From: Ascidiella aspersa
Taxonomy: Eukaryota
Assembly: GCA_963924565.1 (NCBI GenBank)
Contig: OZ004610.1
Coordinates: 31,496,001 to 31,560,000, forward strand
Direction: 5' to 3'
DNA length: 64,000 nucleotides
Positions within the stretch are counted from its first letter, which is position 1, and every line of letters starts with the position of its first letter. Both the position numbers and the translations under genes were made by a program. The notes below the pieces were generated by a model. The model saw nothing but the letters and a program-made list of their open reading frames with translations. It searched no databases and was not told the DNA's origin. Below, piece after piece: positions 27,011 through 53,304 of the stretch.

Positions 27011-30000
27011 TCATAGCGGAATACTGAACACATTTACTCCCGAGTAGTCCCTCGATCGTTGCATTTCGATTGCAACGTTGTTTATCTTCATGTTTTTAAT
27101 GCTTCCGTGGAAACGAGGAGTGGAGGGCAAACCTGCACAAGATAAATCACAAAAATAGTTACCACAGCTAATGAAACAGGGATGGGTACACTCATAAGGG
27201 TGTCATATTGTTCATTCACGCAATACATGGTTGGAAAATATTCAACCATATATGCTGTTCCTCCTTAACAATTTACAGTTTACAACCTTATCAATTTTGA
27301 AATTTGGTATTGAGCATTCGCACATCGGACTCGGGTAGTTTTACGCAGTCTTACTGGACACCCGAGTCCGACTCCAGCAAAAGAAACCGACTTCGTCGAG
27401 TATTGGTTCTGGTTCGCTGTTCTGGTAAAAAAAAATTCCCGGTCATGTCGTCCCGATCAGGTATTACACAGACCGCCTTAATTACAGTTTATTGAAGTAA
27501 TATTGGTTTAAATCGTTGGTTTGAATCATGGAGTTCTTAAACTTTCGGTGCAGCGCCCCCCTTGACTAATGGAAACTGCGGGCCGCCCTATGCGAAAACT
27601 ATGTTTCATTTTCATAGCCACGTTGATTAGCGTACTTACGCAGGCAGTGTTTTCAGATATCTAGAAACATCGCGTAGTGCATTCAAGTCATTGACTTACG
27701 TCGTTACAAAACTGAATACTTAACCGCTAAAGTATATTATACAATGTAATCGCTTATATATGTCAATATAATCAACGCTTGTTTGACCTTTAATTCCCCC
27801 AATGGAGATTTTCAATCCGGAGTCGAATCGCACTTTTTCCCCAGATCGAACAACTTGAGATCGCTTTCCGTTCACGTACATCGTTATCTGCGCAAAATTT
27901 GGGAGAACACATTATTGAATTTTTGTTTGGTAAGATAAGCGTATGTTAAATTTAATGAATAGACTGTTTCCGCCAGGCATTGCACCTATTTTAAAATTGT
28001 TCTTCCGGATATATTTTTATTAATAAATGTACTTATGTCTTTCTCCCAGTTGCAAGATCACCCTGGTGAAAATTTACTGTACAGGTTATGGAATGGTCGG
28101 TACATTTGTTATTTAAAAAAAAAATTTACAGGGAGAAAAAAGTTATAATTATTGTTAAATTTAAACTCAAGATCATTTACCAAGGACAGTAAAATATGTT
28201 ATAAACGGTTTCTTGGCCGTCGGCAAAAAAACTAATATAAGATAATAGATAAAATACTAAACTGGTGTTTTTACTGAAAATCATCAATAGAAAAGAAAAG
28301 TAGACTAAAATCCAATTGGTTTATGCCCGATGTTTTATTCTTCCGTTTAAAAGCCTTATGTGCCATTTAAATCGCGAGACCTTCGTCTCATTTTACCCCT
28401 TACATAAACCCTACAACTATGTCAATCACCTTTGGAGCATAATGCTTGGGGGTTCAAGTAAGATGTAGTAGGAATATCGAAGTCCATACAGAGGTAGGTA
28501 GCATTTTAAACGTTTCGAATAACTCTTTATTCCTTTTCTGTAGAAAATTTTATTCGAAACGTTCACAATGATACCTACTTCTGTATGGCGTTTGGTATTC
28601 TTGTTACAATTACCTTTCCCTTGGACATTTTGCAGTATATGGTCATCCACAGACCGTCGCACAGAGGGTTGTCGCCATTGAAATACTCCGCAAGCTGTAT
28701 CACGTCACCAGAACTATCCAACACTTTGGCAACCAGCTGAAGCAAGAAGAAGAGAAAACAATATTATTAAGTATCATAAGTTTAAGAGTCTTAGCTTTTC
28801 AACACAATGACTCGGTTGTGAAAACAGGGCTGCGGAGTCGGTTCAAAATACACCCGAGTCCGACCCCGACCAAATATGAGATTTCGTCGAGTCCCGAGTC
28901 CGGCCCTGACTCTACAGCCTGTATTTTACCAGTTTACGAAAATAAAATAAGGTGGATATTCAGCAATCCATTTATAGGTGTGTTATATAATTCATTCACC
29001 CACAATACATGGTTGGAAAATTTTCCACCATATGCTATTTCACCTTTACAATTTACAGTTTGCGGCCATATTAGTTTTAAAATTTAGCACTGGGCATGCG
29101 CACGTCAGACTCGGGACTCGGCTAGTTTTACGTGGTCTTACTCGAGCCCGAGTACCGAAAAACAATGTTATTTTTTCCCTGGTCGTGATCCTTTTTTACC
29201 AGGGTGTGCCGTCATTTTCTAGAATGGCGTTATCTCTGAAAGTTTCCGTGCGTTCCGGTTTACTTCAAAGAAAGTCAAATTAGTTTTGGATGAAAAAAAA
29301 AATCTTGTCACAAATCAAGTATTATGCAAAACGTTAACTGAATAAAGATTGTTCCTACTTCGAGTAAAAAGTACCACCTACTTACAGTGGTTCCCAACCT
29401 TTTGGGCTTGCGGCACCCCATATAAATTAGAAATAGTTCGCGGCACCATTTCTCGTATTTTTGCTAATGGTTAAATGTAACGTTACAAAAAACAGATTGA
29501 AACAACATGCATTAACTGTGCATCAAGGTTGAAAACCCCTTAATTTTTACCTTTCCATTTTCCAGGGCTAGGCTGAACGATCCACCGCCCCGTGTTGATC
29601 CAAACAAGACCAAGCCTTCAGAGTAACTGCTTCTAAGGTGAGTTCTAATCGTAAGATCCCTGCTTTGGCCGTACTGGTCGGAACCTTAAAACGACATTTT
29701 TAACTTTTGAGATAAACCTTTCTGATGGAATAAAGTACCAAAAAGAGGTAACATGTTAATGTTAAAATTAATTGTAAAGTTACAATTCTCGCTGCAAGTA
29801 ATTTTTAAATGTTGTCACACACAGTTTCAAGGCACAGACCTTAAACAACGTATTAGGTGTGGATTATTTTGAATAAATATCTAAAGCAGAACAATCTATA
29901 ATACCTGGTATTAGGAACGACGATTTAACGCAATAATAACCACAACAGAATAAGATCTAAAACCGCCTGAATAAGACTTAAACCTGACTGAATAAGTCAC

Positions 30001-33000
30001 AGTAATACGTGTGCCTAATTTTAAATAAATATCAAAAGCAGAATAATCTATTATACCTATAGTATTAGTTAGGAACGACGATTTAAAAAAGCCATGAAGT
30101 CTGCGCAGTATTAACCACAACAGAATTAGATATAAAACCGTCTGAATGAGACTTAACTAAGCGGAATACGCCAACGTAATAGGTGTGGCTAATCTTGATT
30201 AAATCGCCTTCTGCAAGTCATAATCATCATAAGCCGTTTAAACAAATGGCGAGAATAAGCTACCAAGAGTGCTGGTGTCAAAAAGAACTCACATAAGGTA
30301 CATATGGATACCTAATGGGTAGACAAACATATTTACTTTTACCACGTTAAAATAAAATCCACTTACCAAACACTGCATATCCGGTGCCGTAGAAATAAGC
30401 TCCGCTATTGTCGGGAGACTTGAGGCAGCCGGAGTGACCTTGCTTGACCTTCCGCTTGGACGGCAGCCAGGAAATCTTGCCTGCTTTTAATCTCAAATGC
30501 GACATGCACCCCTTGAAGTGCGCATCCAACCCCTAAAACAAAGTATACTATAGGCATGGTGTATTTGTAATGCAAAAATATATATTTTACTTTGCTTTAT
30601 TTCACTTTGCCTTTCTACTTTTGCCACTAATTTCTTTTTCGCCTTTGTTTGCTAAAGGACAATTCCTTAGTTTTTGCAAATTGCTGAAACTAAAGAACCC
30701 CGGCAGCCTGCGGTTTTGGGCGTTGTGTGGTACAGTGCAGTTGGTTTTATGAGCGAGCGAGCTGGCGTACGCGCTCGCCATTCTGACAATAAACACTAAT
30801 GTCCAATTTGAGTGTGACATCCGGTCAGTGACAGACCGCCAAACAAAAAGTTTTGTCTAAAGTAGAAATATAACAGTTTTTAGTCCGAAAAGACTAAAAA
30901 AAAAAACTCCCCAACAGCGCGTTAGTATTGAGATTTAAAAAATGCGATTATCTATTTTATATTCTTTCGGCCACGCACAGGACGATATATTTCCCATAAT
31001 GTCAGTAGTAGCCAAATTATAAATTTGTGCAATTTACCTGAACCGCCATAAAGGTACGGTTTGTAGGAACTCCGCCAACGTAGATTTCGGTTCCTTTAGG
31101 CAGGGTTGTGTTCCCCGGTTGTACGCCGCGATAAACAGTTTTTCCGTCAACAATCAACCTCAGGTTCTTGGGCGAAATCCGTAAGTTTACCTATAATAAA
31201 AATAAGGCAATACCTTTAGAACAATTTAAAAAAACGTTTTGAAATATTTTTTCTTAACGAGTACTCCAATGCATTAACGCAGCAAAATAGAAGAGTAAAT
31301 AAAAACGCTATAAGTTTCATCAATCAAAATAAAACGTCAATCTTTTAGTTCAGGAGTCACCAAACTATGGCTTATTAAAGAATTGTTGAAAGCAGTTATT
31401 GACATTTCCTTAGTTTTTTAGACAACAATTTAATTCTGATCCGCGATTGTTGATACTTTTGATCAAAAAAATAATGCAGGTTTTTATATAAACAAAAATT
31501 ATCCAGCTTTTTGTGAGAAAAAACGATTTTTTACGAAAAAAATTATCCGACTTATTACGAGAAAAAAAAGTCCGGTTTTATATTAAAAATAAATTACGCA
31601 TTTTTTTGAAAAAAAACAAATATTCCAGATTTTTATGGAAAAACAATTTTCCGGCTCTTGATCAAAAAAAATCTGCCGCTATTTATGTGAAAAAAAAATC
31701 GCGACTTTTTATGTGAAAAATACCGATCCGGCATTTTATGAAAAAAAATCGGCGACCCCCCAGTTAGTTGCTAAAGTTTAACCTCATGCCAAGCGCCGTC
31801 GCCGAGATCTGGTCCATCTGAGGCCGACTGTGTCCAGGTCTCGGCGTACTGCTCTGCTCTGTACTCGTACGAGATCAAGCCGTCCCTGATGAACACGTAT
31901 CTGTAACTTCGCTCCTCGCCACCATCATCTAACGCCATGATCACTCCGTCACGTGACCAACCACGCAGGCGGACCGAAAAGTAAAACCTGTGAAAGGAAC
32001 AAACAATGAGACCTACAGAGCAACAGTATCTAAGGCAGGATAATCTTTAATACATATAGTATTAGGACCGATGATGTGAAAATAGCCAAGTACGCAGTAA
32101 CCACAACAGAATAAATCTAAAATCCGTCTAAAGGGCAAATATAACGCTTGAAACGGTAGAGATAGGGGGTATTGGGCGAATGGTTCGGCAATTGCCGTTT
32201 TGGTGTCGACGTTTGGGCGCCATTTAAAGTTTAAATGGCGTGGTTAAGGCGCTGCTGTTTTGGCACTGGATTTGGTCCTATACGTGCGGTTATTGGTAGG
32301 TAATGGGTGATGGGGGTAGAAAATGGGTTAGGGCTGTAGTTAATTAGGAGTGGGGTTTGGGGTTAGGTAAAGTGTTGTTTATAGGCATGATTCTGGCCAT
32401 TTAGGTCGTATTCCGACGGGTTTAGGACTTACCGATTTAGACGGCATTACGACTATTAGGTGTTAGTCCTATGAGTCCCTTCAAAAAACATATATATATA
32501 TATATATCCATGAATGTAGACTGCCTTTTCATTAACTATACTGTGCATATTTATATTAAACACTTACTTTTTACGTGATTTTTTGGCAAACTTGATCGTA
32601 ATATAATCGTCGCTTCTGGCCCCAAGCAAAAGATGTTTGTGACCTCCGAAGCTCACGTTTCTGTTGCCGCTGCACGACACCAAAGGCGCCGAGGGTGCTG
32701 AGGGTTCCAGGTGTGCCAGGGGTTCAACAGGTTCCAAGGATTCCATGGGTTCCACAGGGGCCAGAGGTGCCAGGGGCGTGCAAGCTATGCCATCTCCATG
32801 GAGACGAAATCCCGACGAACAACCGCAGTGAAAGGAACCAGGGGTGTTAACACAGTTCTGCAAATATTGTAATTGTCAGTTATTAGCAGTGTTGTAAACA
32901 AGTATCATTGAAGTGACTTAATTACCAGTCAAGTCATTTGCAATATAACTTAAGTCCAAGTCAAATATTTACAAAAATAACAAGTCAAGTCACACTACTA

Positions 33001-36000
33001 GTCGTTTAAAAAAAAAAACTAAGCGTATAAAATATTATGGACGTAAAATATAAAATTCTGCAGAGGGGGGCTTGCTTCTAAATATTCAAGAAAAAATATA
33101 AAAGTTTTTAGTTTCGTATCGCAAGACTGTCCAATTAACTGGTGTATAACACAGCTACTTCAAACGAGTTTTAGCTGCCTTTTACGTTACCTGTTGACAT
33201 TGAGCACCTTGTTGATGTGCGCATTCGTCTATATCCACACAGTTGGGTGGCTCACCGGAATATCCGTCCCTAAACAATAGTGGGTAGTTACAGGGGCCAA
33301 TCAAGGTCGAAACATGGTATTGGGCCGAGACGTTAAACGGCCCCTGACTGCGTTCCATAATTTGTGGCCACCAAAGATATACGCCAAAATAGTTTTCTCC
33401 AGAAATCTTAAGCCAAAATGGGACGATATATACGTCAAAAACGACAATTTTTTTTGGTAAACTCACTAGGCCAGCCATGTTTCACGCCAAATGGGCCACT
33501 GGCGTGATTTTGCAAAGCATTCACGCCAAAGATCTCTGGCGGGAAGGCATTGGAATGCAATTAGGCTACACCCTAGCAAACGGGTATTTACATTATGCTT
33601 ACTGGCAAGAACAATGGAAAGAGCCAATCGTGTTGGTGCAGTTATGTTCACATTGGTTGGCTATCGAGCATTCGTCAATATCCGAGCACAACGCGCCCAT
33701 CGAAGTGAATCCTTCTCCACAAACACAGATAAAAGAACCTGTATACAAAATGATGATTGGCGTTAATCTCGATTATTGTGTAATGACAGGGACGAATTAT
33801 GCTTTTTTGAGGCCCTGCCCTAATCACTTAAGACTTTGGTGCCCTATATGTGTCATTTAAAGCAGTGGTCGGCAAACACCGGTCCGCGAGGAGTTGGTTA
33901 CCGGTACGTAGCAGGGTTGTCAGATTAAAATTTTGTTTAAACACGAACTGTAGGCTACGTAAAAACCTGGTAAAAAGTCAAAAATAATTAAGCAGCAACT
34001 GACTGAGTGTTAACGCAATACTCAAAAAACAGTCAATGAGCAAAAACTGTCTGAAAGTAGTAAAAGTACATTAATGTATAGTAAATGTTATATTAACTAC
34101 ATCGTTTGTGACGTAACAATGCCTGACAATTAAAGGCGTGGCATGCCTCTGATGTGATCAAATGTTGTGGTACTGCTCATAAATGCTACAAAACAAATTA
34201 TTAAGAGTAAAATATTTATAAATTTTGGGGGGGGGCATGGCCCCTCAGGCCGACCCCTGGCTACGCCTATGAGATGGGAGCCTCACTTTGCGACAAAACA
34301 ACCATAAAGTTCGCATTGAAAGTTGTAATAAATTTCCTTTCCTGCACATTTGTTGTTTTTAAAGGCCGGTCCGCGACAAAATTTTAGTTTTAAACCGGTC
34401 CGCAGTGCAAAAAAGGTTGCCGACCCCTGATTTAAAGCACAAGAAACCACACAATATATTAATGGAAAATATAAAGAGGTTTACGATGATAGCGGTACCT
34501 GAAAAAATAAGCAAAAATTTATTTCATCAATGTTTAATCCAGTGGAATCAAAACGAAGGCAAGGCAAAAAGTAGAAAAGTCACGCCTGATACACATGCAG
34601 TGTTTCCTCTAAAACCCCAAGTAGGCAACACAGTAAAATCACAATTAATAAAATAAGGTAAATAAGGTACCGGTAGGCTATTTAACTAGATTTAACAATG
34701 ATTTTGGGCAAGGTGTAACATATTGGAAAAGCAGAACGAAAAGAAGCTTTTTAATAAAATGAATGCTTCGTTTTTGCTAGTTTCACCAGTTGGCAAATTT
34801 GTATTTCGTTAGCGGCTCTAAAAAATACGCGAGAAAACATAACTGCTGTGAAATTTTAACCAACGGTTTTACTCTTAGCGAGATAATCGCGCTACTAAGT
34901 TTGCTACGCAAGATATAGGCGGCGAAGCAAATATTGTGTTTCTACTATGCGCTTTGTCTGGCTGTTCTTAAAGCAAAATTACCTAACCATATATTATTTG
35001 CTTAGAATTTTTCAAAGTGGAGAACACTATCTTACTGCATATTTTGGTGCAAACATTCTTTAAGGCGTATATACTTAGACTGTTGCCATTCAAATAAGCG
35101 CTTTTCGCACGATTGCCACGTGGAGTTCCGTAGTGTAGTGGTTATCACGTCTGCTTTACACGCAGAAGGTCATGGGTTCGAACCCCATCGGAACTACGTT
35201 TTTTTAAACATCGTTGTCGTGTGTATAATATTATGGGGAGTTGTTGCCTAAGGTTTTTGCTGTTTATGCTGTTCTTTAACGGTTCTTAATAAATCATTAT
35301 TGAGCTTATTACGCACGAGTTTAAATAGTATAAAATTAAGATTTTACATTTCGCAAATTTTACGAGTTTTAACTAAAGTAACGGATAACTGCATTTTCGT
35401 ATTCATAGACCGTCACTCAGAATATTAGAAAAATGACATATGGATTCGTATAAGCTTTTATAAATATTTTTTATTAAATCGGAATCTCATCGACAAATCT
35501 GCACTCGTCAAAACGTCGCTTTAAACGCTTTTTACAGTGGGCGATATTTCAATATTATTGCTAGTTTTCTACTGTGTGCCCCTACTGCATTCTAGAAATT
35601 GGCCAAAAGATTGACTCACCAAAAGTTTGTAAATCCCACGGCAAAATTATTTTAAATATTGTAAAATCACCATGCTGTAGGCCAGTGGTCGGCAAACTGT
35701 GGGCCGCAGAGCCATTTTCAGTGGGCCGCGAGTTAATTTTGAATAGCTAAGTGTTATGTAGTTGCGGGCCGCGCGATAGCCGTAAATTCAATGCTCCTTA
35801 TTTTAAAAGTTAGTGTGGCATAGAATTTTTAAATTGGCTCAACTTGGAAAGGCCCACGTGACAAATGTGGTCATGAGAGTGCCTGTCGAATTTTTTTTTG
35901 CCAACTTTAACTTTGTGTAAATGTACAATTTTCCGCGCTATTGTTTTTGTTTTATAGTATGTTTTACAATATGGCATGGTCGTGTTTTGGTCATCAATTC

Positions 36001-39000
36001 GCCGTGTAATATTTCAACTTAAGATCCTATCCTGAATCCACCACTGTTTTTGTAGGCCTACTGGTTTTACGTAGTGGGCCTTCAATAGCTCTGAAAGGAG
36101 TACTTTGGGCAGCGACAAAAAAAGTTTGCCGACCACTGCTGTAGGCTAAAGACGTCAGTGACGATAGCATTTCACGCCACAAAGATCTTTGGCGGAAACA
36201 CGATGGCATTCCACGTGGAATGCTTGCAAAAAATCACGCCAGTGTCGACACTTGGCATACAGTATCGCGGGCCTAATGAATTTCAGTTGAAAAAATGTTG
36301 GCGTGAATATTTGGCGGCCACATCTATGGAATGCAGTTAGCGGTGGAAAGGGTCTGAAATGCATTTGGAAGGACTGTCTGAGTATTGGAATGGATGTAAC
36401 AGTTTAGCAGAACATTTACACGTTTTTTCCCGAATAACGTAATAGTATCAATCTTTCATTTGGATATTTATTGGTTCCAACTAATTGCTTCTAATTTAGT
36501 ATTTTCGTGTTTGTGTACATGTTTTTTTATTTGGAAACTTGTGGTAAATAACTTGATAATGAATTGCAAAGCCAAAAAGGTCGAGTAGGTCGACATCATC
36601 CATTGTCAAGCTACATTACAGATCCGTGCATAGTGTACCTAAGGTTGGTAAACAAATTTATTAGGCTAATCTAAAATAATTATCGTCGTAGGATATTTGC
36701 CTATACATAAAGCGACGTGCAGTAGCGCATAGAATGATTTTAAGATTTTTGTTTGATCTCGCATTTGAATAAAATCGGCAAACTTTTAATTAGGAAGGTG
36801 ACGCGAAGAACAAAAGATCCACAGATTAGTCGGTATAATGATACTTATAGCAAGATGGTTTTGTTATTGTTATGGTACAATTTGCTCGCATGACAAAAAA
36901 GCACCTTTCTATCGTTTATTTTGCAAAACTGACATTTTAGAGTTAGACAGTGCCACGATACGTTTTGGGACGAAAATACAGTGTCACCTTGTTACCCCCT
37001 CTCGAACCTTCTCCAACAACCTTGTGTGCGATTAAATTATATATACGTTGAAAAAATGCGTCTATTTTATTTCAGTTAGCAAAACGTTTGCCTTATAAAT
37101 AAACTTGACTCAATATTAAATAGGCGCATATAAAAGAAAAGAACAGTATTATTTCCACGCCTGAATCCCAGCACCGAAATTACGTTAAATGTTTTTTTTT
37201 CGTACTAAGCGCTATTACACTGTGATTATTTTGGTTTACAGGTTGGATAGCTGTTACTGACGATGCAATGTTATTGTAAAAATGCATTAACGAGATAATT
37301 TGACAGAAATGCATTTATATAGAGTTTTAGTCCACACAGCCTGTGGACACATAGAAAATGTGAAAATTTTATATAACGTACCTTAATGCTGAAAACTTTG
37401 GCATGCCATAATGTAAAACTCCATAAAATCGTGGAATATTCGAAATTATGCCTTTCCGTAGCCAGTTAAAGTTGACCAAAATAAGATTTGGGCGGCAGTG
37501 TAGCTGCTTGAAGAATTTGGTCAATAGCATAGCCGGTTGTAACGACATGACGTCTGCCTATCTGTATTATCCTAACTGTCTTCTGGGCGCGCTTTGTCAT
37601 TTGTCCAGAGTTTCCTGTTTTGTGTTTAATCGCGCTGTTACGAAATACTAGTCACCGCCATCTGGTATAAGTATTAGGCGCTTACAATTGCATCATAAAA
37701 TCAGCAGCAACATACTATTCACACTGTGGATTCGTACAATTCCTCCCATTTGGGGTGGATTACCATAGGGTGTAACCGGCGTTATCCGCCTTGAAGGTTA
37801 GAACGTTACCTTTGTGTGGTTTACGGAAAATAGAACCCAGGGGCATAAAAATTGATCCACTAGCAAAGGTAGATATTTCCACCTTTTAAGTTAGCAGTGC
37901 ACGGTGGATTCGTACAATTCTTACCCTTTTGGGGTTGATTATAATAGGGTGTAAACAGTATTATCCACCCTGAAGGTTAGAACGTTACCTTTGGGTGGTT
38001 TACGGAAAATAGAACTCAGGGGCATACAAATTTATCCACTCGTGAGGGGAGATATTTCCACCTTTTCAGTTTACAGTTCAAGTGCGTGGAGTTTGGTCGC
38101 GCACGTTTTCTAAGTTGAAATTAATTATTAAACTTATCATATGTAAATCTGTAGGCCTAAGTACAAATTTACCGTTTGTTCATTAGCAGTAAATATTTCT
38201 TTTATTGTGGTTCTAACCAACAGCACTCACAACAGCGAAATTAATAGCGAAAAGTCGTTATCGATATAGTGGCGGGCTAATAAAAAAAATAATTTTAATC
38301 TATTACTTTTTTGATTTTGATTCTATGACCGGTCAATAAAAATAATGACGCAGGTCAATAAAAAGAGTTCCCTGTATAATTTGACCAGCGGGCCTGTAGT
38401 TGGCCACGCTGATTTGGATCATCGATCGACCAATCGCTCTCCCTGCACTTCAGAATGTTACGAATAGCCAAGAGGAACAAATATTTGTATGGTTTGAATA
38501 CCAGTCCCGTAGTGTAGCGGTTATCACGTCTGCTTTACACGCAGAAGGTCATGGGTTCGAGCCCCATCGGGACTACGCTTCTATCGATTTATTAGCAATG
38601 TCTTTACAGTAATACTGGATGGCTGCTATAGTGTTTAATAAATTTATTATCCATGGTTCATAACATTTGTCACCTTTGTAACGCACATAACTAAATACCA
38701 AAAAAATAGAACTAAATAACAGCACAAAACTAAATAACCAAAACATAGTTTTTATTTACCAACCTTCCGTATTTTGACACACATCGCTACAGTTTCCGTT
38801 GTTGTGCTCACACTCATTGATGTCTGAATCGCAGTCTTGACCGGTATAACCAGGATCGCAGTTACATGAGTACCTGTAAAAATAAACATAAGCTTAAGCC
38901 CAGCCTGACTGCATTCCATAATAATTTGTGCCCGCCACAGATTGGTGCCAAACTTTTTTTTCGTTTGAAATCCTACGCCAAAAATCTCCGACGGGAAGGC

Positions 39001-42000: not shown

Positions 42001-45000
42001 GGACTTAAGTCTCTTGACCAGAATGACTTGACTCGATTCAAGTTTTTTGGCAAATTACTGGACTTGGACTCAAGTCATTGTTTCAAATATTTGTTATTAG
42101 AATTAAGATATAAAATTTTGCACATAAAACAATTAGGCTGCTGTATATTAGTATTTTTTTTTTAGTTGAGCTAAGGGTTTATATTTGGAAGAGTCACCAA
42201 TTTTAATAGTTTTGCGCTTTTTTATGTCAATGACTTAACTTGTGTTGACTTGCTCTAATAATGACTTGACTCGGACTCGACTTGCTGTTTTTGGAAAATA
42301 CTTGACGTGGACTCAAGTTATTTTAGAAATGACTTGTTTACAATCCTCTTGACACCGTAACGTAGCTGCCCTTATCCGATTGGAAGATTGGTTTTATAGG
42401 TGATGCTTTAACTTTATTAGCATAAATTGTTGCCGAACCTCTGCAAGTCTTTTTATCGTAGTTAATCAGAAATCCTTCTGGACAACTGCATTTGTAGCTT
42501 CCTGGGGAATTTATGCAATCGTACTGACACCCATGGTAACCAGTGCATTCGTCAATATCCTGAAAGAATGATATAAAGTTAATACCAAAAAATCATACCA
42601 CATGGCACCCATGAAATAAACCTTATACTTTGGTTTGAAATATAAATTATTAAAAGTATATTTCCAGGTTGATAGGCATTCAATGACAACGAGTCCACAT
42701 GGAAAGTGTGTTTATTACTTAATGCTAAAATACTTTATTTACGCAGCTTATATAGGTAGGAAGTATGAACGTCGATTTTGGGCCAGCAGAAACTTGGGGT
42801 GCTCAGACCCCCTAAATAATGATATTTCTTAAAAAGTGAATAGTATCCGGTTCAAAACCCACTATATCAAGTTTAATAAAAGCGTAGACTTACGTTGATT
42901 GGGGCATTAATCATGTTAATTGTTTATCAGTATAAAGCGAAGTCTGAATAAAAACATTTTCATTAATAACCCAGGCAAGAAAGTCGGCGTCTAGTAATCG
43001 AATTTTAATAAACCATTGCAACGTGTATGTTATACGAAATATTGTCAACTAAAAGATATCGCATAACTAAAAAAAGTAAAAAAATGTAAAACATTCACTA
43101 ACAAGAAAAATAGTTTCGATACCATATTCTTGAGATAATTGCAATATCATATTGTTAAGAACATTACGATATATTATCATTTTTTAATATACAATCAATT
43201 CTGTCAAACTTACAATCAAAGAGCACATAAAAATACACCAAACTCACATCGCATGTTCTCCCATTGTCGCGCGATTCGTAGCCTTTGTGGCAGTAGCAGG
43301 CGAACGATCCTTCGTTGTTGAGACACTTAGCATCACATCCTCCGTTGTTAGTCTTGCACTCGTTGATGTCGACACAGTATCGCCTGGAAAAAATTACCCG
43401 ACAATATGTTAATATTTCCTATTTAATAACGCTTAGTTTAGACAATTTTCTTAACTCCAAAAATAATGTTTTGTGTTATTACCAAAATTTTTCCAAAAGA
43501 AAATGCATACAAGTGTAATTATTTTTCTTTTTTGCAACTATCGTTAACAAGTATTATTTGCGAAAACCTAAAATGATGCTTAACTGAGTATGAACATACA
43601 TTAAGTGCCAGATGGGCAAAAGCCAGAAAAGTACTTTATCGACAGATATTAAAAAAGGCTGTTAGTCTTGCACTTGTTGATATCGACGCAGTGTCGCCTG
43701 AAAAAAATCACCCGACAATACCATTTTGTAAAAAAAAATGTCGACAGATATCAAAAAAGGGCTAAATAACTACCCTACAGATTTTTTTTTCTAATTTTAA
43801 ATATGACTTTTTTAATGAAACTTGTTAAAAACTCATTATTTTGTGGCGAAAAAATATATTTCTCTTTAAATGACTAGAACTTATTAATAACTGACTTTTA
43901 CTAAGACAGGAAATTCTAAATAATATTGGCTCCATTTGAAGTGATTGTCATTATTTACGTGTCAGGGCGTGAAAATATCTTTATGTTTTACAAAATTAAT
44001 TTTTTTATAAACTCAACTCTAGATCACAACTTTTAGCAAGACATTCGTGGAAGTTCTATTGCAGTGGTTCCCAAACTTTTTTACCTTGCGGCACACTTTA
44101 AACAGAACAACAATAGAGTAATTTTACAATCGCACTTGACACACGACAATATATATGTAAATATATCAATGTTAATAATTTGTAATGAATAGGGCGTATT
44201 TAAGTCTAAAATGCTTGCGTGTATGAATCTTGGTAATAAAAATAACTTATTTTCCAAATTTACAAAAAGTTCGCAGCTTACTTAACAATCTTTCGAGGCA
44301 CACAGTTGGGGATCACTGCTCAATAGTTTCGAAACGAGAGCGGCCCCTTTTCCCCACACTCACTTAAACGCGTCGTCGACCTCATATCCCGCCTTACAGG
44401 TACACTTGAAGCTTCCGGGCGAATTGATACATTGGTAATCGCAGCCGTGAGCGCCATGGCATTCGTCAATATCTCGGCAGGCGTTCAGGTTCGGTATGTC
44501 GACCAAGTAACCATCCTGGCAGAAGCACCGGAAACTTCCGAATGTGTTGGTGCAGTTGTGCTCGCAAGGTGGCGACAGAGCGCACTCGTCGATGTCTGCG
44601 CGAAAATATTTGGCGAGATTTTTAAAGTCGTGTTAAATATTAAAACAAATTCTGTTGTGTACACTATGCACGGATCTGTAATGTAGCTTGATAATAAATG
44701 GCAAAGCCAAAAAGGTCGAGTAGATCGACAGCACCTTGATTAAGACGTTTCGATACGAGCTTGTATTATCTTTAGTTAATGTGACTGAGAAGCATTTCAA
44801 GCATCACTTATAAGAGATGGGACGAAATTGTTAATAGTCTGAGTTTCGAAAGTTGGGCCATTATTTAGCACCTTCGGGTGTTGGACAGGTACAGTGTTGA
44901 TAAGGCCTTTTGTACTTTATAAAATCGAGATTTGGGGGGACAACATAAGCGTGTGGCTGCAAATAACAGCCGCGATATTTCAATCGGACTCAAAGATTTG

Positions 45001-48000
45001 CACATATTAATTAAAAGATACGTTAAAGTTCAAATAAGGATTTAAGCAAGTCAATTTATAGTGACATCACTGAAATATAATTCAATAGGGTGTATCTTTA
45101 TAGAATCCAAAACCATCGGCAGCAGGTTTTAGCCAGTCGATCACTGCTCCGCTGACGCGTATATTAACAAGTAAAACTCATAGTTAAAAACATGAGTAAA
45201 AACAGGATCAGATGTTTTGTTTAAAAGGAAAATATATTTCGCCAAGTGGCATCATCAGTTCCTTATTCAAATAGAATCTAATCTATTAATGTTGGATTTA
45301 TTCGACATTTTGTTTCTTTCGCGGCGCACTTAGCAGCCTTTCATGGCGCACCGGTTGAGAAACGCTGCGTTAAGGTAAAAGCCAACGAAGAACCACATTT
45401 AAAAGCGTATAACTACCAGGGCTTGCGTAGTTCCGTAGTGTAGTGGTTATCACGTCTGCTTTACACGCAGAAGGTCATGGGTTCGAACCCCATCGGAACT
45501 ATGTTTTTAGTTTATTAGTCAAACCTTCTATTTTCAGTCGGCCACGAATATTATTTGATTCCCCATTCAACTCAACTCAACTTTGTTTCAAGTAAAACAC
45601 TTACCAATGTCGCAATCGGGACCTGTCAGTCCTTTGTCGCAAATGCACGAAAATACCCCTTCGTCAGTTTCACTAGCGGCACATCTGCCGTTTTCGTTGC
45701 AACCCTTTGATCGGCAATCGTCCACGGCTACAAAAATCAGTAACTTGTCAAACCGTCTATTAGAGCATAAAGGCTGGTGGTTATAATTAGACGTAGAATG
45801 AATATCAACGCCTATAAAGAAGTATAGGCGTAGCATTTGTTGAAAAAAATAAAAACAGCATTTGAAACGTTCACCAAATACTACCTATACTTATATATGT
45901 GCTTTGATATTCATTCTCAAGTGATTGTTAGTAAAACAGATGTTGTGCACAAATTTTGCTTAAATATTTGATAATTTGTTGCTTTCGTTTACTACCTCTA
46001 TTTTTATTTAGTAGATTCGCTTGCTTCTGTCGTTTCAATTAAAACAGTGTTTCTCCATTTTATGTGGGGCGACCAAAAAACCAAAAGGTGTGCAACAATA
46101 AAGCTTTGGCGAATCAATTTTCTTCACTGAACGTTTTGTAAGCAAAACAAACACGAGAAAGCAGCATTAATAAGGGCAAGCTTAATCAATATGAGCCATG
46201 TCTAAGTAGTGCTTCTGAAATCTTTTCAAGTTTTAGTGAAATTTGTCTCAGAACCAATCTCAATAAGTATAACCATATAAATCTTCACAGCAGAATAATC
46301 TAGCAAAGCTAACAATTCAAGTCAGACACAATTAAAAGATTTTAAAAGATATATATATATATAATACATTTGGCAAGCAAAGACTTAATTTTTCTAGCTT
46401 TGCTTGAGTATCCTGCTGTTACTGATGAGATGAGGAATCAAGGTCGCCATTTATCTTGCAAGGATCAGGGTAATTTCTATTATCACATATTTAGTGCAAC
46501 ATACAAAACTACTACAGCCGCCGAACAATAAGCATATCGCATGCTGAAACGCTCCCTTACCTTGTTCGCACAGCGCGCCGAAGTAAATCTCGTCGCAAAC
46601 GCACAGGAAGCGGTTCACCATATTGAGGCATGTACCACCGTTTTGACAGGGTGAGCTCGCACATTCGTCTATATCTGTATGGGAAGTTGAAACGTAGGTT
46701 TACGAAACACTTTATACTAGATAGTAGAAGTGTTTCAAGTGTTTTTCCATAAGTACACAAAAAGTTTTTTTCATTAGATCAATTCTAAGTCATGAATAAA
46801 TTCTACTGCGTTCTAAAGCAAAGCAAGCACTTCTGTTGTGACGAATCTACAACAGTAGTATCGCCACAAAAATGGCCTTTCTGGCCTTTTGTGCTTTGAG
46901 AGTCTTCTTTTTGATAAACACAAATAAAAACGCATTATTGGCATACCATTGGAAACGAAAATTTTTTTTTTTAAGAACGCAATTTAATTGTAAGGTACAC
47001 CAACATTTTAGCCGTTTAGAATGAAATCTACACATATACATTAATGACGCGCTTTGGCATAAATAATTCATTTGTTTTTTGTATTACTTTGTTTCCTGTA
47101 ATTTCTGTTTACCTATTTGACAAAGTGATCCTTTGAACCCCGGCTTGCATTCGCACTGGAAAGAGCTTTGCACGCTTATGCATTGACTGGTACCTTCAGC
47201 ATTGCAGGGCTCCTGCAAGCACCGATCCATGGCTGTAAAAAAATGAAAAACACGTTCCGTATAATTTAGGCATATATTCGTTAACGCTTGAAAAAAATTT
47301 CAGACGACGTTGTAAGAATATCAAAGCCCCTACAGAAGTAGATATCACTGTAAACGCTTCATCAGATGTTAAAAATGAATATAGAGTTATTTAAAACGTT
47401 TAAAATGGGCGGTGATAACCATTATGCTCCAAAACTTTCAGACGAGAAACGCACTAAGTCAATAAATCCACCGAAACTTTATCGCGATTAAAATAAATTT
47501 GCAATTCCATTCGGTTGTGCATAATGGTTAAAGGTTGCAGTAAGACGTAGTAAGAATATCAAAGCCCATACAAAAGTAGGTACCATTTTGAAAGTTTCCT
47601 CAGATGCTGAAAATGAATAGAATTATTCAAAACGTTCACAAAATGCCACCTACTTCTGTATGGGCTTTGATATTCTTACTATCTTTTATTACAACCATTA
47701 GGCTCCAAAACTTTCAGACGACAAAAAGCACATTGTCACTATCTCCACCGAAACTTTATCAGGATTAAAATAAATTTGCAATTCCATTAGGCCCGTGGCG
47801 CATGCTTCGCGCTATCGATTCTTGATTCGTTACAAAGGAAAGATTTGGCGATGATACGATTATTATCACGCTTTTTACCCGTCTGGCATATGTCTCCAGT
47901 GAAACCGGGATTGCACACGCAACGGTAGGCATCGTTGTTATTTTCACATCGACTTGTCCCGATGGCATCGCACGGATTTGAGGCGCAGCGGTCGATTCCT

Positions 48001-51000
48001 TAAGAAAAATGAGAGTTTTTTTCAAGATTCTAGTGGTGCCGCCAAACCAATACTTAAAAAGTAATGTGGCTATTTCCGAAGTGGTCAGTTTCGGATTTCA
48101 AGGATTTGGCCAGATGTCCAAGTTAATCCACCGAAAAATAACCAACCAAAAACACTGATATTAACTTTGAATTGCACATGGCGCACAGGTATGATAGGCT
48201 TACTTAATTTGCATAATTTGAACGTCACCCTGTAACAAATTATTGTTACGCCATGTCTAAGTACTCATACAAAAACATATTGGATCCGCTGACTGCTTCC
48301 AAAATATGGTAACCCAACTAAGGCCAGTTCAGGCCACAGTCCGTAAAAATCTAGCGAAGGGAAGCCCGCAGCTCAAAATTTCATCGTGTAATATATCCAG
48401 AAGTAAACAAGATATCTCGAAAGAAGTCTGATGGCTAAGTTAGGTTGCTTTGAGTAATGTGTACAAATTTCAAATCGATATCTTGTTTACTTCAGGAGAT
48501 ATTACAAGATAAAATTTCGAGTCCCTTTGGTTACAAATGTGATGTTTGGCATTTACTCCTTTCGCAAGTTTTCCCTTCGAATCCTGGCCGACAATCGCAG
48601 TAGAAATCACCAAACAGATCGTTGCACACCATCGTGTTGCCGCTCACACAGGGCGCCGGCTCGCACTGGTTAACATCTGCGTATACCAGGAAGGTTAATA
48701 TATACAAAAGGGCGTAACTTCATTGAATCCAAAACCATTAGCAGCAGGTTTCTGCTTGTCGATCACTGATCCGCTGACGCTTATATCAACAATAAAACTC
48801 GAAGTCTAAAATTCTGGGGAAAAACAGGATCAGACATTTTTAAGGAATATATATTTCGCTCATAATGGCATCGTCAGTCCCTTATTAATAATTAATCAAG
48901 GAACTGACGATGCCAGTATAGGCGAAATATAGATTACTTAAAAAAATGTCTGATCCTGTTTTTACTCTGGTTGTGGAACTCTGAGTAAATTGGATTGTAT
49001 TCTCGACAAGCTTTCGCGCAACCGTATTTATCGGCATTTATACTTTGACCTGATAAAACACGGTTGTGGGAAAGCTTGTCGAGAATACAATACAATTTGT
49101 CTTTATATATACAGTTCCACCTAATTTGGCAATCTACAAAGAAATATAGTTCGGCTAATAGTATATTATTTTATTTACGCTTTACGTAGTTTTTTGATGC
49201 GCAAACATCCACTTTATACATTCAACGTACAGAACCCACTGTTTCATGCTATAAATAAATTCAGCAAGAAAAAATTATAAAATCGCTGTTCTGATATGCA
49301 CCTGCAAGGCAAAGTCGAAGCCTGTCTTTCTGGTCTTTCGGCGTTGCGCCCCTTCCTCGTCTTTTAGGGGAGAAAACCCTTTTATTGCACCCTACAAAGT
49401 GCAGATACATTAAAGCGGATACATTCCAGTGCTCTAACGATAAAAGGAAATGGAACGGTCAATTCATAACGTAATACACGTGCAGCGAAAGTTACAAACA
49501 CATACATGTGTGTTAACCACTGTGATCTAGCCCTTATAAAGCTGCTTTTTTACCAACAATTACGGCTTACGTATAATTAGTACACCGAAAGACATCGTAC
49601 GTAATACACGTGTTGTTAAATTTAACGAAATACACTGTCAGTTGCCACTTGATCAATTAGACTCATTACGCATTGTTTTAGTGCATAATTGTTTAAGTAC
49701 AACATCGTATTTAGGAAAGTTTGCATTCATCAGATGAATGATCACTTTCATTAGTTTTCCAGTCACCAATATATTCTCACACGCAGAATGCTTTCACTTT
49801 ACAGATTACCTTTAAAACAATGATTCTTAACCGGGGTGCCGCGGCACTCTAGTGTGTCATTTTTAACGCTTAGGGGTGCCTAGAGATGTTTCAAATTCTT
49901 AAGGATTCCTGTTTTTGCTCTATTCCTAAGCTTCTTGATACAATTTTTGTGTACGATAAAAGTGCAAAAATTAAAAAAAAAAATTTCAACATTGTTTCAC
50001 AGCTAAAGTGCTGTTTCAATATCGTTTATTGTAACGTTACAGTTAACCACTGAGCAAAAACACGAGCAAGGGTGTCGCGAACGATTTACAATTTCTGTAG
50101 GGTACCACAAGCAAAAAAAGGTTGCGAAACACTGCTTTAAAATATAGTTTACGATCTCATTTCAAGTTAATTCACTGGTGGAAACTATAAAATTTGCAAC
50201 AAATTGCGTTTTACAGGCGCCAAAGGGACTGTATTAGAAAATTTCAACCTGCGATAAGGTTTATATCGATTTTTTAATGATGTAGGGATTAAATTGTTTT
50301 TATTCGGTAAGCGCAAACATTTATCGATCGGTCTTTGTAGTTGGTACAGAATTTATAGTTGCCTTGATCGAACTTGCATGCTAAAAAGAAATCCAACAAT
50401 CTTACCTTTGTACTTTAGCCAGAAAGTTTGCTGGAAACAAAAGAAATAAGTGTTAATTTCAAGGAACGGTTGAACATTAAATTGTTGAAATATTAATTAG
50501 TTTTTTTTTGCATAATCTAGTGTTTTGAACCAATTCTCTCGTTTAAACAACACTCGCGTGAGGTAGAAAATTTTTAGTCGAATATTTTATACACATATAT
50601 GTATCTGTGAGCTGGCCTTTTTTATGTTGTGCTGAAAACCAACACGGCACAGATACGGCATCACACCAAGTGAATTCGGACGGCCCAACATAAATACATA
50701 AATATTCAACCTAAGGAATTCAATACAAACTTAAGTACATGCAAAATTCTCACCGGACATATCAAAAACTTGAATAAAACCTAAACGTTTAGAATCCGTG
50801 GTTTAGCCACACCTGCCAAGCAGACTGCGCAGTGAAATTGCCTAGATTTGTATTTTGGTAAACAATACCGATATTACTAATTCACAAATTTTAATATTCA
50901 TGTTGAAGTTTACAAACTTAACCTTCAAATATTTATTCTCACCAAAAGAAACGTTCGCTTAGTATGAAATTTCTCAAAGGATATATAGCAAGCGATTTGA

Positions 51001-53304
51001 TTTATGTGCAAACATTTGGATAAATGGCTTAATTTTATTAAAAATACTTAAAGAAAACACTTAAGCCATTTGTCCGAAAGACTTAAGTCAAGTCAAGCCA
51101 TTTTCCCAAATGACTCAAGTCAAGTCAAGTCACGTCATATTGTCCAAAAGACTTTAGTCAAGTCACGTCATATTGTCCAAATGACTCAAGTCAAGTCAAG
51201 CCATTTTGCCCAAATGACTCAAGTCAAGTCAAGCCATTTTGCCCAAATGACTCAAGTCAAGTCAAGTCAGTTGAAACAGTGACGTAAGTGCACTAAATCC
51301 CAGTCATTGACTTCGGTCAACAACACTTGAGGAAATATTGTTTATCACTCACCGCTGTGTTGGTATTGTCGGAAATCTCGAAGGCCTCCTCATAGTTGCA
51401 ATCTTCCTCAATACATTCCCTCTCCGTATTCCCCGGTTTCAGTTCCTCGAAGATGTTCGCCCTGTTGCTCCTGGCAACGCGGTGAGGTCGGAGGAACTGA
51501 CTCGCCTCTTCCTTGTTGACGAAAACGGCTGCGCGTCAAAAAGAGGCCTCGTAAGTGTTTGAATGTGCAAGTTTAAACAAAAAGGAAGTCGCGTAAATAC
51601 TCAAGCGGCCTAAATACACAAGAATTGGGGAACGAAACCCGCCCGGGTTGGCGCAAAGACGTTAGGAAATAAACTGGTCGTGACCTGGGCAAATTTACGT
51701 TCTTAGATGACGGTTATAGAATGTCACCACCTCCCATCTTATCAAACTGCAACACCAATGGTTCACATGCTGCATTTTTTGACCGATTTTGCGTGGGCGA
51801 TGTCTGGTAATGTTTAAATGTTGTACACATCGTGAAACGTGGCATTCCTTCAAACATGTCTACGAATAAGACGTAATAAGAATATCAAAGCCCATACAAA
51901 AGTATCTTTTGAACGTTTCGAAAAATACCTACTTCTGTATAGGCTTGGATATTCTTATTGAGTCTTACCACAACCTCCAACCATTATGCTCCAAAGATAT
52001 TGATAGCGATATTTAGGAAGGACTTTGTTATATGCCTCGGACACGAGAAGCTTTAAAAGAAACATCAGCTAATTTGGCTCGGGTCGTATCTTTTGCCCAA
52101 GATATCACGGATCGATATGGGAATAAAGCACAAAGCGTCGGACATACTCCAACCTCCAACCGTCATGCCCAATGACCAAAAATTATTCGCGCTGAAGTAT
52201 TTCTTGGGCCAGAGCTGTTCAGTGACATTTCGCGCGTAATCATTCAAACTCGCCCTTTCACTTAGAATTTTCGGCCGAAACAAATCAATTTGCCTAAAAA
52301 AAATCGGGCCCTTGGCAAAACGGGTGAGCGAGGCAGACGGTGCGTGACGCCCCCTGCCCGCATTTACGTCATCATTATGACAGGGGCGTTCCCAAAGGCC
52401 GATCTTTTAAGCACAATGGGTCGATAACGCTCAGCATTAAAACATTGCTTGTTGTCCAAACGCCAACACTCGTTATTAAATCAATAGGAATAAACGCGAA
52501 GACTAAACTCAAGCTGCGCTGACTAATTTCAATGCGCCCTGTTAACCACTGAAGTTGAAGTTATATAGGAATGTAAATCTATCCGATGTAATTTAGAGGG
52601 TCAAATAAATTTTCCGAATTAATTTAGAGCGTCAAATTATATTTTGATTTAACGTACATCAGACAGAATTATTTTCTAATTTAAATACTGTCTAATTTAA
52701 CCTAAATTGGAACAAAATGTTGTCCGATTTATGAATCGCACAGATTTGTAAGATTTAAATGTTGTTCTGTTTAAATTGAAACGGAAAAAATAACATTCCA
52801 TTTTAAACTAAGCGAAATATTTTTTTAAAAGGTGCCCCGTAAATATGCGCGCGAAGGCTCCGCTCAACTTCACCGTTAATCACATAAAAGTGTCTAAAAG
52901 TTTAAAATAATTCGAACTTAACCACGTAACCTTCAATAGCAAGCAACTTACTATTTGTCGTTTAATAAATGTTTTTTAAAGCGTTTTGCTTTAAAAATAA
53001 AAAACGTACAACGGCATTTTAAAACCCTCAAAAAGCTTCTCAAAACCTTGAGAAAATACGAAATGATTAACGTTGTAACAGCATCGGTCCTATTTACATT
53101 ATTATCTGTAACTCAAGTAAAAGGATAACAAAAAATGTGAGAACACTGTACAATTATCTGGTCAAGTTACATATTTTACGAAATAAACTTCTCGGTCCTA
53201 AGTATAGAACGCGACAGTTGTTCAACAATAATAAATTAAAACGCGTTACCTCCGACGCCAATCGACGAAATTGCAGCAAAGCACAGTAAAAGCAAAACTT
53301 CCAT
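27011..53304 (-). CDS. Vitamin K-dependent Gas6/protein S-like secreted protein: signal + propeptide + Gla + 16 EGF + Pro-rich linker + 2 laminin-G, 25 exons, ~1121 aa
   Basis: Exons (minus): 53304-53250, 51528-51353, 50430-50406, 48676-48557, 47998-47879, 47232-47113, 46674-46561, 45727-45605, 44595-44364, 43383-43248, 42559-42439, 41711-41608, 40803-40674, 39922-39751, 38873-38764, 33738-33603, 33269-33191, 32857-32568, 31987-31783, 31190-31038, 30532-30367, 29684-29551, 28736-28614, 27887-27788, 27132-27011. All phases join without stops (3366 nt). Propeptide [12 protein letters not shown]...RVAR; Gla domain [27 protein letters not shown]; aromatic stack QTFWLKY; many D[IV][DN]EC cbEGF repeats; LamG motifs [31 protein letters not shown]. 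Confidence 0.93.
29853..30205 (+). repeat. Degenerate tandem repeat, related sequence at 32025-32130
   Basis: Repeated AAGCAG.A.AATC, TTAGGAACGACGATTTAA and TAACCACAACAGAAT blocks. Confidence 0.7.
33863..34429. mobile_element. Non-autonomous hAT element (MITE)
   Basis: TIRs CAGTGGTCGGCAA / TTGCCGACCCCTG; perfect 8-bp TSD ATTTAAAG. Confidence 0.9.
35124..35196 (+). tRNA. tRNA-Val (TAC), antisense in intron 15 of the Gla gene
   Basis: AGTTCCG/CGGAACT acceptor stem, TAGTGTAGTGG A-box, anticodon arm TCTGC-TTTACAC-GCAGA, GGTTCGAACC B-box, T-run terminator just downstream. Confidence 0.95.
35683..36138. mobile_element. Non-autonomous hAT element (MITE)
   Basis: Perfect TIR CAGTGGTCGGCAAACT; perfect 8-bp TSD CTGTAGGC. 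Confidence 0.92.
37722..38078 (+). repeat. Two tandem ~178-bp units
   Basis: GTGGATTCGTACAATTC ... GAAGGTTAGAACGTTACCTTTG.GTGGTTTACGGAAAATAGAAC ... AGATATTTCCACCTTTT occurs twice head to tail. Confidence 0.9.
38503..38575 (+). tRNA. tRNA-Val (TAC), variant copy, antisense in intron 15 of the Gla gene
   Basis: Same cloverleaf with a compensatory acceptor-stem change (AGTCCCG/CGGGACT) and two loop substitutions. No T4+ run immediately downstream. Confidence 0.9.
41961..42345. repeat. GACTTGACTT-family MITE (also ~7840-8000, 9500-9918, 17560-17900, 25650-25765, 32888-33000, 40070-40223, 51080-51328)
   Basis: CAGTGTTG-type ends, arrays of AATGACTTGACTT and an internal ACCAATTTTAATAGTT. The 51070 ORF (QMTQVKSS repeats) is this repeat. 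Confidence 0.85.
45225..45264 (-). ncRNA. Minimal type-I hammerhead ribozyme, intact core (family C)
   Basis: Minus strand reads AAGGAA-CTGATGA-T-GCC-ACTT-GGC-GAAA-TATA-T-T-TTCCTT. It has a perfect 6-bp stem I, the CUGAUGA and GAAA cores, stem II, a palindromic stem III and a UH site. Confidence 0.8.
45429..45501 (+). tRNA. tRNA-Val (TAC), antisense in intron 8 of the Gla gene
   Basis: 73-nt sequence identical to the 35124 copy, followed by TGTTTTT. Confidence 0.95.
47515..47712. repeat. Palindromic GGAGCATAATGG...AAAGCCCATACAGAAGTAGG MITE family (also ~11400, 18135, 24447, 28432, 40900, 47305, 51870, 62293)
   Basis: Long internal inverted repeat AAGAATATCAAAGCCCATACAGAAGTAGG / CCTACTTCTGTATGGGCTTTGATATTCTT recurring about nine times. 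Confidence 0.85.
48841..48940. ncRNA. Divergent inverted pair of minimal hammerhead motifs (family C)
   Basis: Minus 48884-48841: TAAGGGA-CTGACGA-T-GCC-ATTATG-AGC-GAAA-TATA-TA-TTCCTTA. Plus 48898-48940: AAGGAA-CTGACGA-T-GCC-AGTATA-GGC-GAAA-TATA-GA-TTACTT (U16.1 mutated). Confidence 0.75.
49818..50134. mobile_element. Non-autonomous hAT element (GCGGCAC family; relatives at 29385-29540, 44062-44319, 45320-45370, 63928->64000)
   Basis: Degenerate CAGTG-type TIRs; TSD CTTTAAAA on both sides. Confidence 0.7.

Follow-up and report, generated by a model that had tools for sequence, protein, structure and literature searches.

The window analysed here is a stretch of 64,000 nucleotides (nt) from Ascidiella aspersa (contig OZ004610.1, positions 31,496,001 to 31,560,000 of the forward strand), and coordinates given without a contig are positions in it. 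On its minus strand, 25 exons running from 53304 to 27011 form one open frame of 1,121 amino acids (aa), which encodes in order a signal peptide, a propeptide with a Gla domain, a 25-nt exon, 16 EGF domains, a Pro/Glu-rich linker and two LamG domains (LG1 and LG2). The original prediction of a Gas6/protein S-like ligand was built on these parts, and all of them, including the Gla exon with its nine Glu, were located on that strand. We read the product as a secreted protein, likely a tunicate co-orthologue of Gas6 and protein S, acting as a long tether between phosphatidylserine membranes and a cell-surface partner, with a LamG pair derived from laminin alpha1/2; we put the probability of this reading at about 0.62. 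Related genes were searched for in the whole genome (308.6 Mb, 75 contigs), in which the gene lies on contig C4. The exons are the following.

53250..53304, minus strand: exon 1, signal peptide of 18 aa, ends in phase 1
51353..51528, minus strand: exon 2, propeptide and Gla domain (Pfam PF00594), ends in phase 0
50406..50430, minus strand: exon 3, 25-nt aromatic-stack exon, phase 0 to 1 (compare human PROS1 c.234 and c.259)
48557-48676, 47879-47998, 47113-47232, minus strand: exons 4-6, EGF1-3, 120 nt each, phase 1-1, Cys spacing 4-7-8-1-8
46561-46674, 45605-45727, minus strand: exons 7-8, EGF4-5, phase 1-1
44364-44595, 43248-43383, 42439-42559, 41608-41711, 40674-40803, 39751-39922, 38764-38873, minus strand: exons 9-15, EGF6 through the first half of EGF14, with X3 splicing (see below)
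33603-33738, 33191-33269, 32568-32857, minus strand: exons 16-18, remainder of EGF14, EGF15-16, linker, Cys753 and first LG1 strand
31783-31987, 31038-31190, 30367-30532, minus strand: exons 19-21, LG1 and LG1-LG2 linker, intron phases 2, 0, 0, 1 (Pfam PF02210)
29551-29684, 28614-28736, 27788-27887, 27011-27132, minus strand: exons 22-25, LG2, Cys1033 and stop, intron phases 0, 0 (extra), 1

The model starts with an ATG at 53304 and ends with a stop codon at 27011-27013 on the minus strand. All 24 introns have GT/AG borders, and the frame contains neither a second signal peptide nor an in-frame stop. Exons 19 and 24 have weak splice donors, both predicted from sequence. When all 24 introns were scanned for hidden in-frame exons, 10 candidates were obtained, and the three that were inspected resemble noise. 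Intron 15 is 5,025 nt long and cuts EGF14 between its third and fourth Cys.

Four sequencing runs were compared with positions 38600-45400 for splicing evidence. Run X3 was taken as complementary DNA because its contig is spliced and its intron bins are empty. Bases 1091-2099 of this 3,423-nt spliced contig (record 9) correspond to exons 15 to 9 without gaps, and the six junctions among exons 9-15 agree with the model. The contig extends 1,093 nt on the 3' side of exon 15, starting like exon 16 and with a length that would place its end 64 nt inside exon 22; upstream of exon 9 it continues for ~1,325 nt, of which coding exons 1-8 explain 853 nt. Judged by their length and start, these flanks would fit most of the remaining exons. 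Moreover, run X3 contains 0.97 of the sampled words from 32560-32860, the exon 18 region. Intron 9 also contains, at ~43660-43700 on the minus strand, an incomplete duplicate of the first part of exon 10, which has a separate acceptor and is skipped in the X3 contig.

Exon 2 matches the Pfam Gla domain with an expectation value (E) of 3.8e-13 and 49.8 bits (cut-off 27). The mature Gla domain carries 9 Glu, at positions 46, 47, 54, 56, 59, 60, 65, 66 and 69, and a Cys57-Cys62 loop of the hexapeptide disulfide type. Propeptides of Gla proteins share an F/A/L consensus for carboxylase recognition, and F21, A27 and L31 stand here at the canonical spacing. The RxxR cleavage sites, R38 and R41, come 2 or 5 residues later than canonical. 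The first three exons end in phases 1, 0 and 1, and the part of PMC13129427 available places the human PROS1 introns after c.76, c.234 and c.259, which gives the same phases and a 25-nt exon. This pattern had been proposed as a sign of kinship with Gas6 and protein S, a use that we abandon, since the two other EGF-bearing Gla genes of the genome (on C1 and C3) also have a phase-0 Gla exon followed by a 25-nt exon; the 1-0-1 phases and the 25-nt exon mark Gla genes in general. The reported lack of a thrombin-sensitive region was borne out: there is no Cys, and thus no disulfide loop, between the Gla domain and EGF1 in the model, and intron 3 yielded two phase-compatible candidates for a loop exon, of which the one inspected has 5 Cys, unlike a loop.

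Residues 86-720 contain exactly 96 Cys, corresponding to 16 EGFs, and both calcium-binding consensus elements are found in 12 of the 16. A stalk about four-fold longer than that of vertebrate Gas6 and protein S, as had been anticipated, follows from 16 versus 4 EGFs. The three 120-nt exons carry three copies of an EGF with 4-7-8 Cys spacing (EGF1-3). This spacing of the first EGF also occurs in frog protein S and in 7/7 other tunicate-type Gla-EGF sequences, whereas the sequences of factors VII, IX and X and protein Z have 4-5-8 (7/7). The description of the gene as having 'clotting-factor exon architecture' is right for exons 1-8, but not for the EGF6-16 stretch, where 6 of the 9 introns fall inside a domain and all three phases occur; single phase-1 exons encode EGF1-5 only. 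The top-scoring EGF pairs are 6/15, 7/9 and 8/14, a hint from sequence comparison that the array may have grown partly by block duplication. EGF13-16 with LG1 are collinear with EGF1-4 and LG1 of protein S (E 4e-35). The linker (aa 718-750) is encoded by a short tandem repeat at 32703-32776.

Pfam Laminin_G_2 (PF02210) matches exon 19 (E 1.4e-3) and exon 20 (E 6.1e-5). Taken singly, the four LG2 exons gave no Pfam LamG match, and LG2 was recognised through alignment to laminin LG5 and protein S. Single-exon searches of PDB returned weak matches, namely SHBG as the sole LamG among the matches listed for exon 19 (E ~0.5), agrin for exon 20 (E 0.85) and laminin alpha1 for exon 21 (E 0.095), and the equally weak search with exon 23 gave no LamG match. 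C753/C1033 and C916/C943 align with cysteines of protein S and would pair accordingly.

The introns of the LamG pair were compared with those of human PROS1, which were placed on the frog protein S sequence (P0043) using offsets of 1-3 residues, some of them set from presumed numbering. One of the six PROS1 LamG introns is presumably at c.1644. The other five lie after c.965, 1155, 1323, 1492 and 1870, according to the parts of PMC7558706, PMC13129427 and PMC8980663 available. All six are matched in phase within 5 residues by the present gene, and four of the six within 1 residue; no random placement was as good (0/20,000). Together with the 4-7-8 first EGF, this match upholds the proposed kinship with Gas6 and protein S.

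Other LamG loci served as a control, with 48 Pfam LamG matches in the genome. A laminin gene on C4 (15173755-15176678, minus strand) carries an LG4-LG5 pair with the same six introns (6/6), phase kept and each within 1 residue, which again none of 20,000 random placements equalled. The first full exon of this pair is as long as PROS1 exon 10 (c.966-1155), at 190 nt, and the best PDB match of its LG5 exon is mouse-type laminin alpha1 LG4-5 (2jd4, E 2e-19), the LG4-5 regions of alpha1 and alpha2 ranking best. Given the C4 laminin pair alone, a spliced aligner recovered five of the six introns and an extra one at our locus; in 14 further LamG loci it recovered nothing comparable, although its automatic calls on diverged loci are unreliable. 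A hand-curated control laminin gene on C8, alpha3/5-type by our own reading, shares 1 of 7 introns. A Pfam Laminin_II search did not find the laminin genes of the genome. Relative to the set shared by PROS1 and laminin alpha1/2, LG2 has one extra intron. Because all three genes share the six introns, these link laminin alpha1/2 LG4-5 with the SHBG-like module. The observed introns thus suggest that a laminin alpha1/2-type gene gave rise, through its LG4-LG5 end, to the LamG pair. A reading of the PROS1 intron match as proving orthology was given up, as laminin alpha1/2 has the same six introns; for the same reason, introns alone cannot tell one capture from two.

Given that introns do not separate these histories, the sequences themselves were compared. 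A maximum-likelihood LamG tree of four taxa (this protein, PROS1 as the one vertebrate sequence, and two laminins; 334 columns) is best when this protein and PROS1 stand against the two laminins, with a bootstrap proportion (bp-RELL) of 0.845 versus 0.077 and 0.079, and support is 73/55 in a five-taxon tree. This best grouping is the one expected from a single origin, and independent capture would instead put this protein with laminin alpha1/2. The local score between protein S and laminin alpha1/2 is 163. In a tree of the Gla domain and EGF1 (16 rows), the C3 gene is placed beside Phallusia Gla2 with support of 98/97. By parsimony, with the shared EGF1 type and the collinear EGF13-16/LG1, orthology of the tunicate protein with Gas6 and protein S appears quite probable.

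Homologue searches added little to these comparisons. Searches with the exon 19 LamG yielded no true relative: there was no match among 15 candidates, other searches returned six repeat-driven matches and two weak metagenome loci (34%), and within its own genome exon 19 matches itself only. Whole protein S searched against the genome retrieved EGF arrays only (99 matches). A Gla profile search returned, among the best 120 of 171 matches, tunicate Gla-kinase, Gla2 and short Gla-EGF proteins and one protein S, and no tunicate Gla-EGF-LamG protein and no Gas6 in that set.

We then examined the partners that such a ligand would need. A carboxylase-family gene lies on C3 (five exon matches, best E 6e-20) and a VKOR gene on C1 (E 1e-4). 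A tight TAM/MET kinase-motif pattern identified two loci, although genome searches for TAM genes give lower bounds. The first is a MET-like gene with a Sema/IPT-like exon. The second, an intronless frame at C1:33174001-33176442 (minus strand), encodes a TAM-class kinase whose best named matches are Mer, Axl and Tyro3 (E 1e-86 to 1e-77), above MET (1e-65), and which has a signal peptide and three FN3-like ectodomain stretches. No Ig-like exon was found in the 38 kb upstream, and a single-sequence model of the ectodomain was unusable (predicted local distance difference test 34). A receptor built like vertebrate TAMs, with two Ig domains followed in the count by two FN3, was not found in the genome, the one TAM-class kinase identified having three FN3; a second, intron-split TAM gene may be present. 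Vertebrate TAMs contact the SHBG-like region of the ligand through Ig domains (available part of PMC5133808), and bridging requires attachment of the Gla domain to phosphatidylserine (available part of PMC13763681). Judged from sequence, the membrane-binding half of the Gas6 mechanism carries over well, and the receptor half does not.

Several results weigh against our reading. The receptor comes first: neither Pfam nor PDB detects an Ig domain in the ectodomain of the C1 TAM-class kinase, and bridging to a TAM receptor is therefore weakened. Thus, of the phosphatidylserine-TAM bridging that had been predicted, the Gla membrane-binding half fits, but the TAM-class kinase found is without an Ig domain. 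Within the protein itself, the C-terminal disulfide pair of LG2 is absent, as is the loop between Gla and EGF1. The LamG pair has a local score of 220 with laminin alpha1/2 (90/354 identical) versus 100 with protein S (68/352 identical; shuffles ~35), and LG1 of frog protein S scores 100, 99, 94 and 80 on four other LamG loci versus 74 here. The alternative LamG trees stay unrejected (approximately unbiased test, AU, 0.12), and both this protein and PROS1 are long branches, so that long-branch attraction would push the same way as the favoured tree. The expected grouping of the LamG domains with the SHBG/Gas6 family is favoured by the best tree, but not to the exclusion of its rivals or in terms of score. 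The Gla-EGF1 tree leaves this protein apart from protein S (p-AU 0.27 when forced together). As for transcripts, ~470 nt on the 5' side of the X3 contig are unexplained by coding exons, and may be a 5' untranslated region (UTR) or an exon absent from the model; an acceptor-like site just before the ATG, a pyrimidine tract and AG ending 5 nt upstream of it (53305-53320, minus strand) such as a 5' UTR or trans-splice acceptor would have, may be connected with this stretch. Finally, raw RNA run X5, of which ~6 in 100 reads were sampled, has no depth in exon-only bins.

The nearness to laminin could be explained by a convergent build, in which a tunicate Gla-EGF gene took the laminin alpha1/2 LG4-5 exons independently, so that parts are shared without orthology. 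The LamG pair is closer to the laminin of its own genome than to protein S, strict shared sites number 7 with laminin alpha1/2 versus 4 with PROS1, the introns are silent between the two histories, the EGF6-16 introns are unlike phase-1 modules, and the Gla domain groups with the short Gla-EGF protein P0001 (86/93). We nevertheless find this history unlikely: it requires that one and the same module of Gla, 25-nt exon and 4-7-8 EGF took up an identical set of seven exons twice, and both the single-origin tree favoured by maximum likelihood and the collinearity with protein S from EGF13 to LG1 speak against it.

An equally unlikely explanation is a role in matrix or adhesion, with a Gla-tipped, fibrillin-like rod of calcium-binding EGFs joining calcium-rich or anionic surfaces (tunic, follicle, egg coat) to glycans via a laminin-like, basic LamG pair. 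This would suit the laminin-like LG pair, whose LG1 carries basic clusters at both ends, and a TAM-class kinase devoid of Ig. In the available part of PMC8149874, Ciona Gla3 is raised 7.5-fold in cionin-treated follicles, which are driven to ovulate, alongside a collagen and an MMP. An EGF+ZP-like gene ~1 kb downstream on the same strand points the same way, but gene neighbourhood is weak evidence in animals. Against such a role, the Gla domain keeps its nine core Glu and its hydrophobic I/F/L residues, which in Gla domains serve membrane binding. Moreover, the laminin LG calcium site begins with an acidic residue, which is absent in both LG domains here.

It is very improbable that adjacent Gla-EGF and EGF-LamG genes were falsely joined over the 5-kb intron 15 or another long intron, even if that intron is long, RNA splicing evidence covers exons 9-15 and not exons 1-8 and 16-25, and a short Gla-EGF gene without LamG exists on C1, because intron 15 falls within a domain, the X3 contig passes exon 15 into an exon-16-like start for 1.09 kb and reaches 1.3 kb upstream of exon 9, and the frame lacks a second signal peptide or a stop; the locus is very likely a single gene.

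Returning to the reading as a Gas6/protein S-like tether, the protein would first be secreted and its propeptide cut at an RxxR site, as its sequence predicts. Up to 9 Glu would then be gamma-carboxylated, carboxylase-family and VKOR genes being present in the genome. By analogy with known Gla proteins, the Gla domain would bind phosphatidylserine on dying or activated cells in a Ca2+-dependent manner. With the usual length per EGF domain, the stalk, stiffened by its 12 calcium-binding-type EGFs, would span ~40-45 nm versus ~11 nm for four EGFs. The Pro-rich hinge would free the LamG pair for a receptor or a polyanion on a phagocyte or in the matrix, and a disulfide between Cys753 and Cys1033, predicted by alignment, would hold the pair together. 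More tentatively, and with the odds somewhat against it, the module with which Gas6, protein S and SHBG bind receptors may be a captured LG4-LG5 end (seven exons) of laminin alpha1/2, fused once to a Gla-EGF gene before the tunicate-vertebrate split; the tunicate form would then be a laminin-like intermediate, the Gas6-Ig1 bridge, given a TAM-class kinase devoid of Ig, non-ancestral or replaced, and the 40-nm tether used with another receptor.

The gene resembles protein S and Gas6 in the order Gla, aromatic stack, EGFs and two LamG, in the phases 1, 0, 1 with the 25-nt exon 3, in the 4-7-8 spacing of EGF1, in the six LamG introns, in the cysteines of the inter-domain pair (frog C289 and C569) and in those of the predicted LG1 disulfide. 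It differs in having 16 EGFs versus 4, a Pro-rich linker and one extra LG2 intron, and in lacking the thrombin-sensitive loop and the LG2 C-terminal disulfide; identity over the LamG pair is ~19-20%, and there are 9 Glu versus the 11 Gla given for Gas6 in the partial source available. Because the loop and the count of four EGFs are missing, we do not class it as Gas6 or protein S proper. With LG4-LG5 of laminin alpha1/alpha2 it shares six introns by position and phase, the top pairwise score (220), a Cys ahead of LG4 and the Cys in the LC(D/N)G.W motif of LG5; in contrast, the pair is joined here to Gla and EGFs and not to a coiled coil and LG1-3, identity is 25%, and the final Cys pair is lost. 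Factors VII, IX and X and protein Z have the same succession of signal, propeptide+Gla, 25-nt and phase-1 EGF exons and likewise no loop exon, whereas the present gene encodes no protease domain and its first EGF is 4-7-8, not 4-5-8.

Kulman et al. (2006) reportedly described four Ciona Gla proteins. Here, four canonical Gla loci were found in the genome, and since the other three fit the Gla-kinase, Gla2 and short Gla-EGF types (Ciona, Phallusia, Clavelina), the present gene is by elimination the Gla3 candidate. The available part of PMC8149874 describes Ciona Gla3 as a multi-EGF, presumed Axl ligand, which agrees with the original statement that the class was already known from ascidians. 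The Gla3b forward primer given there encodes PCNDIG, compared with PCDAIG in EGF2 here; unlike our protein, which has no transmembrane segment, Gla3 is called transmembrane in that source. By elimination and by this six-residue primer motif, the gene is probably the orthologue of Ciona Gla3.

Other Gla loci were also seen. At C9:11719000-11731500 (minus strand), a Gla exon is followed by tyrosine-kinase exons, as in the Gla-receptor tyrosine kinase (Gla-RTK) type; the kinase of its Ciona counterpart is nearer MET/RON than TAM in PDB. Beyond the four canonical genes there are 13 weaker Pfam Gla matches (C2:7.14-7.20 Mb, C2:8.68-8.80 Mb, C6:6.20 and 26.13 Mb); in the six that were inspected, the propeptide ends in KR and the Glu/Cys core is shortened, which by sequence suggests that diverged Gla-like genes form an expanded family here.

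A separate gene lies at ~22600-26010 on the minus strand, ~1 kb beyond the stop codon, with a signal-like exon, EGF-like modules and, by eye, a ZP-like domain; its EGF exon had no Pfam match, and it is possibly co-transcribed with the Gla-EGF-LamG gene. Three copies of tRNA-Val(TAC) stand on the plus strand, antisense to the gene, at 35124-35197 and 38503-38576 in intron 15 and at 45428-45502 in intron 8. Exons of a long coiled-coil protein occupy ~900-12300 (plus strand), and those of an acidic protein, presumably resembling LTV1, ~14900-20000 (minus strand). Outside the window, C4:33.05-33.42 Mb and C5:27.66 Mb contain single frames of 5,504, 3,453, 3,412 and 3,427 aa with tandem EGF repeats, three of these four lying 1.5-1.9 Mb from the present gene. 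From C4:15170510 onward (minus strand), a very long Thr/Glu/Ser-rich, mucin-like frame is found ~3 kb past the laminin stop codon.

The gene is real and well formed, and adds to a known tunicate class. That SHBG, protein S and Gas6 are homologous to laminin and agrin has long been known (title of Joseph 1997). In the open literature no statement was found on an intron set shared with laminin alpha1/2, a single search having been aimed at this point and older subscription papers and supplements being outside this scope, and the available parts of PMC9643190 and PMC3927612 contain nothing on this gene. The six-intron set singles out laminin alpha1/2 LG4-5 as the donor of the Gas6/protein S/SHBG module; the literature, in the parts available, has so far given general laminin G homology. 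According to the available part of PMC4221892, GAS6 and PROS1 arose in early vertebrates, after the tunicate-vertebrate split; if orthology holds, assembly of the module would, unlike that dating, predate the split. The laminin-derived intron set and the TAM kinase without Ig lift this gene above the routine: the kinase offers a direct test of the age of the dead-cell-clearance ligand-receptor pair, and a natural 16-EGF version asks how much spacer length bridging tolerates.

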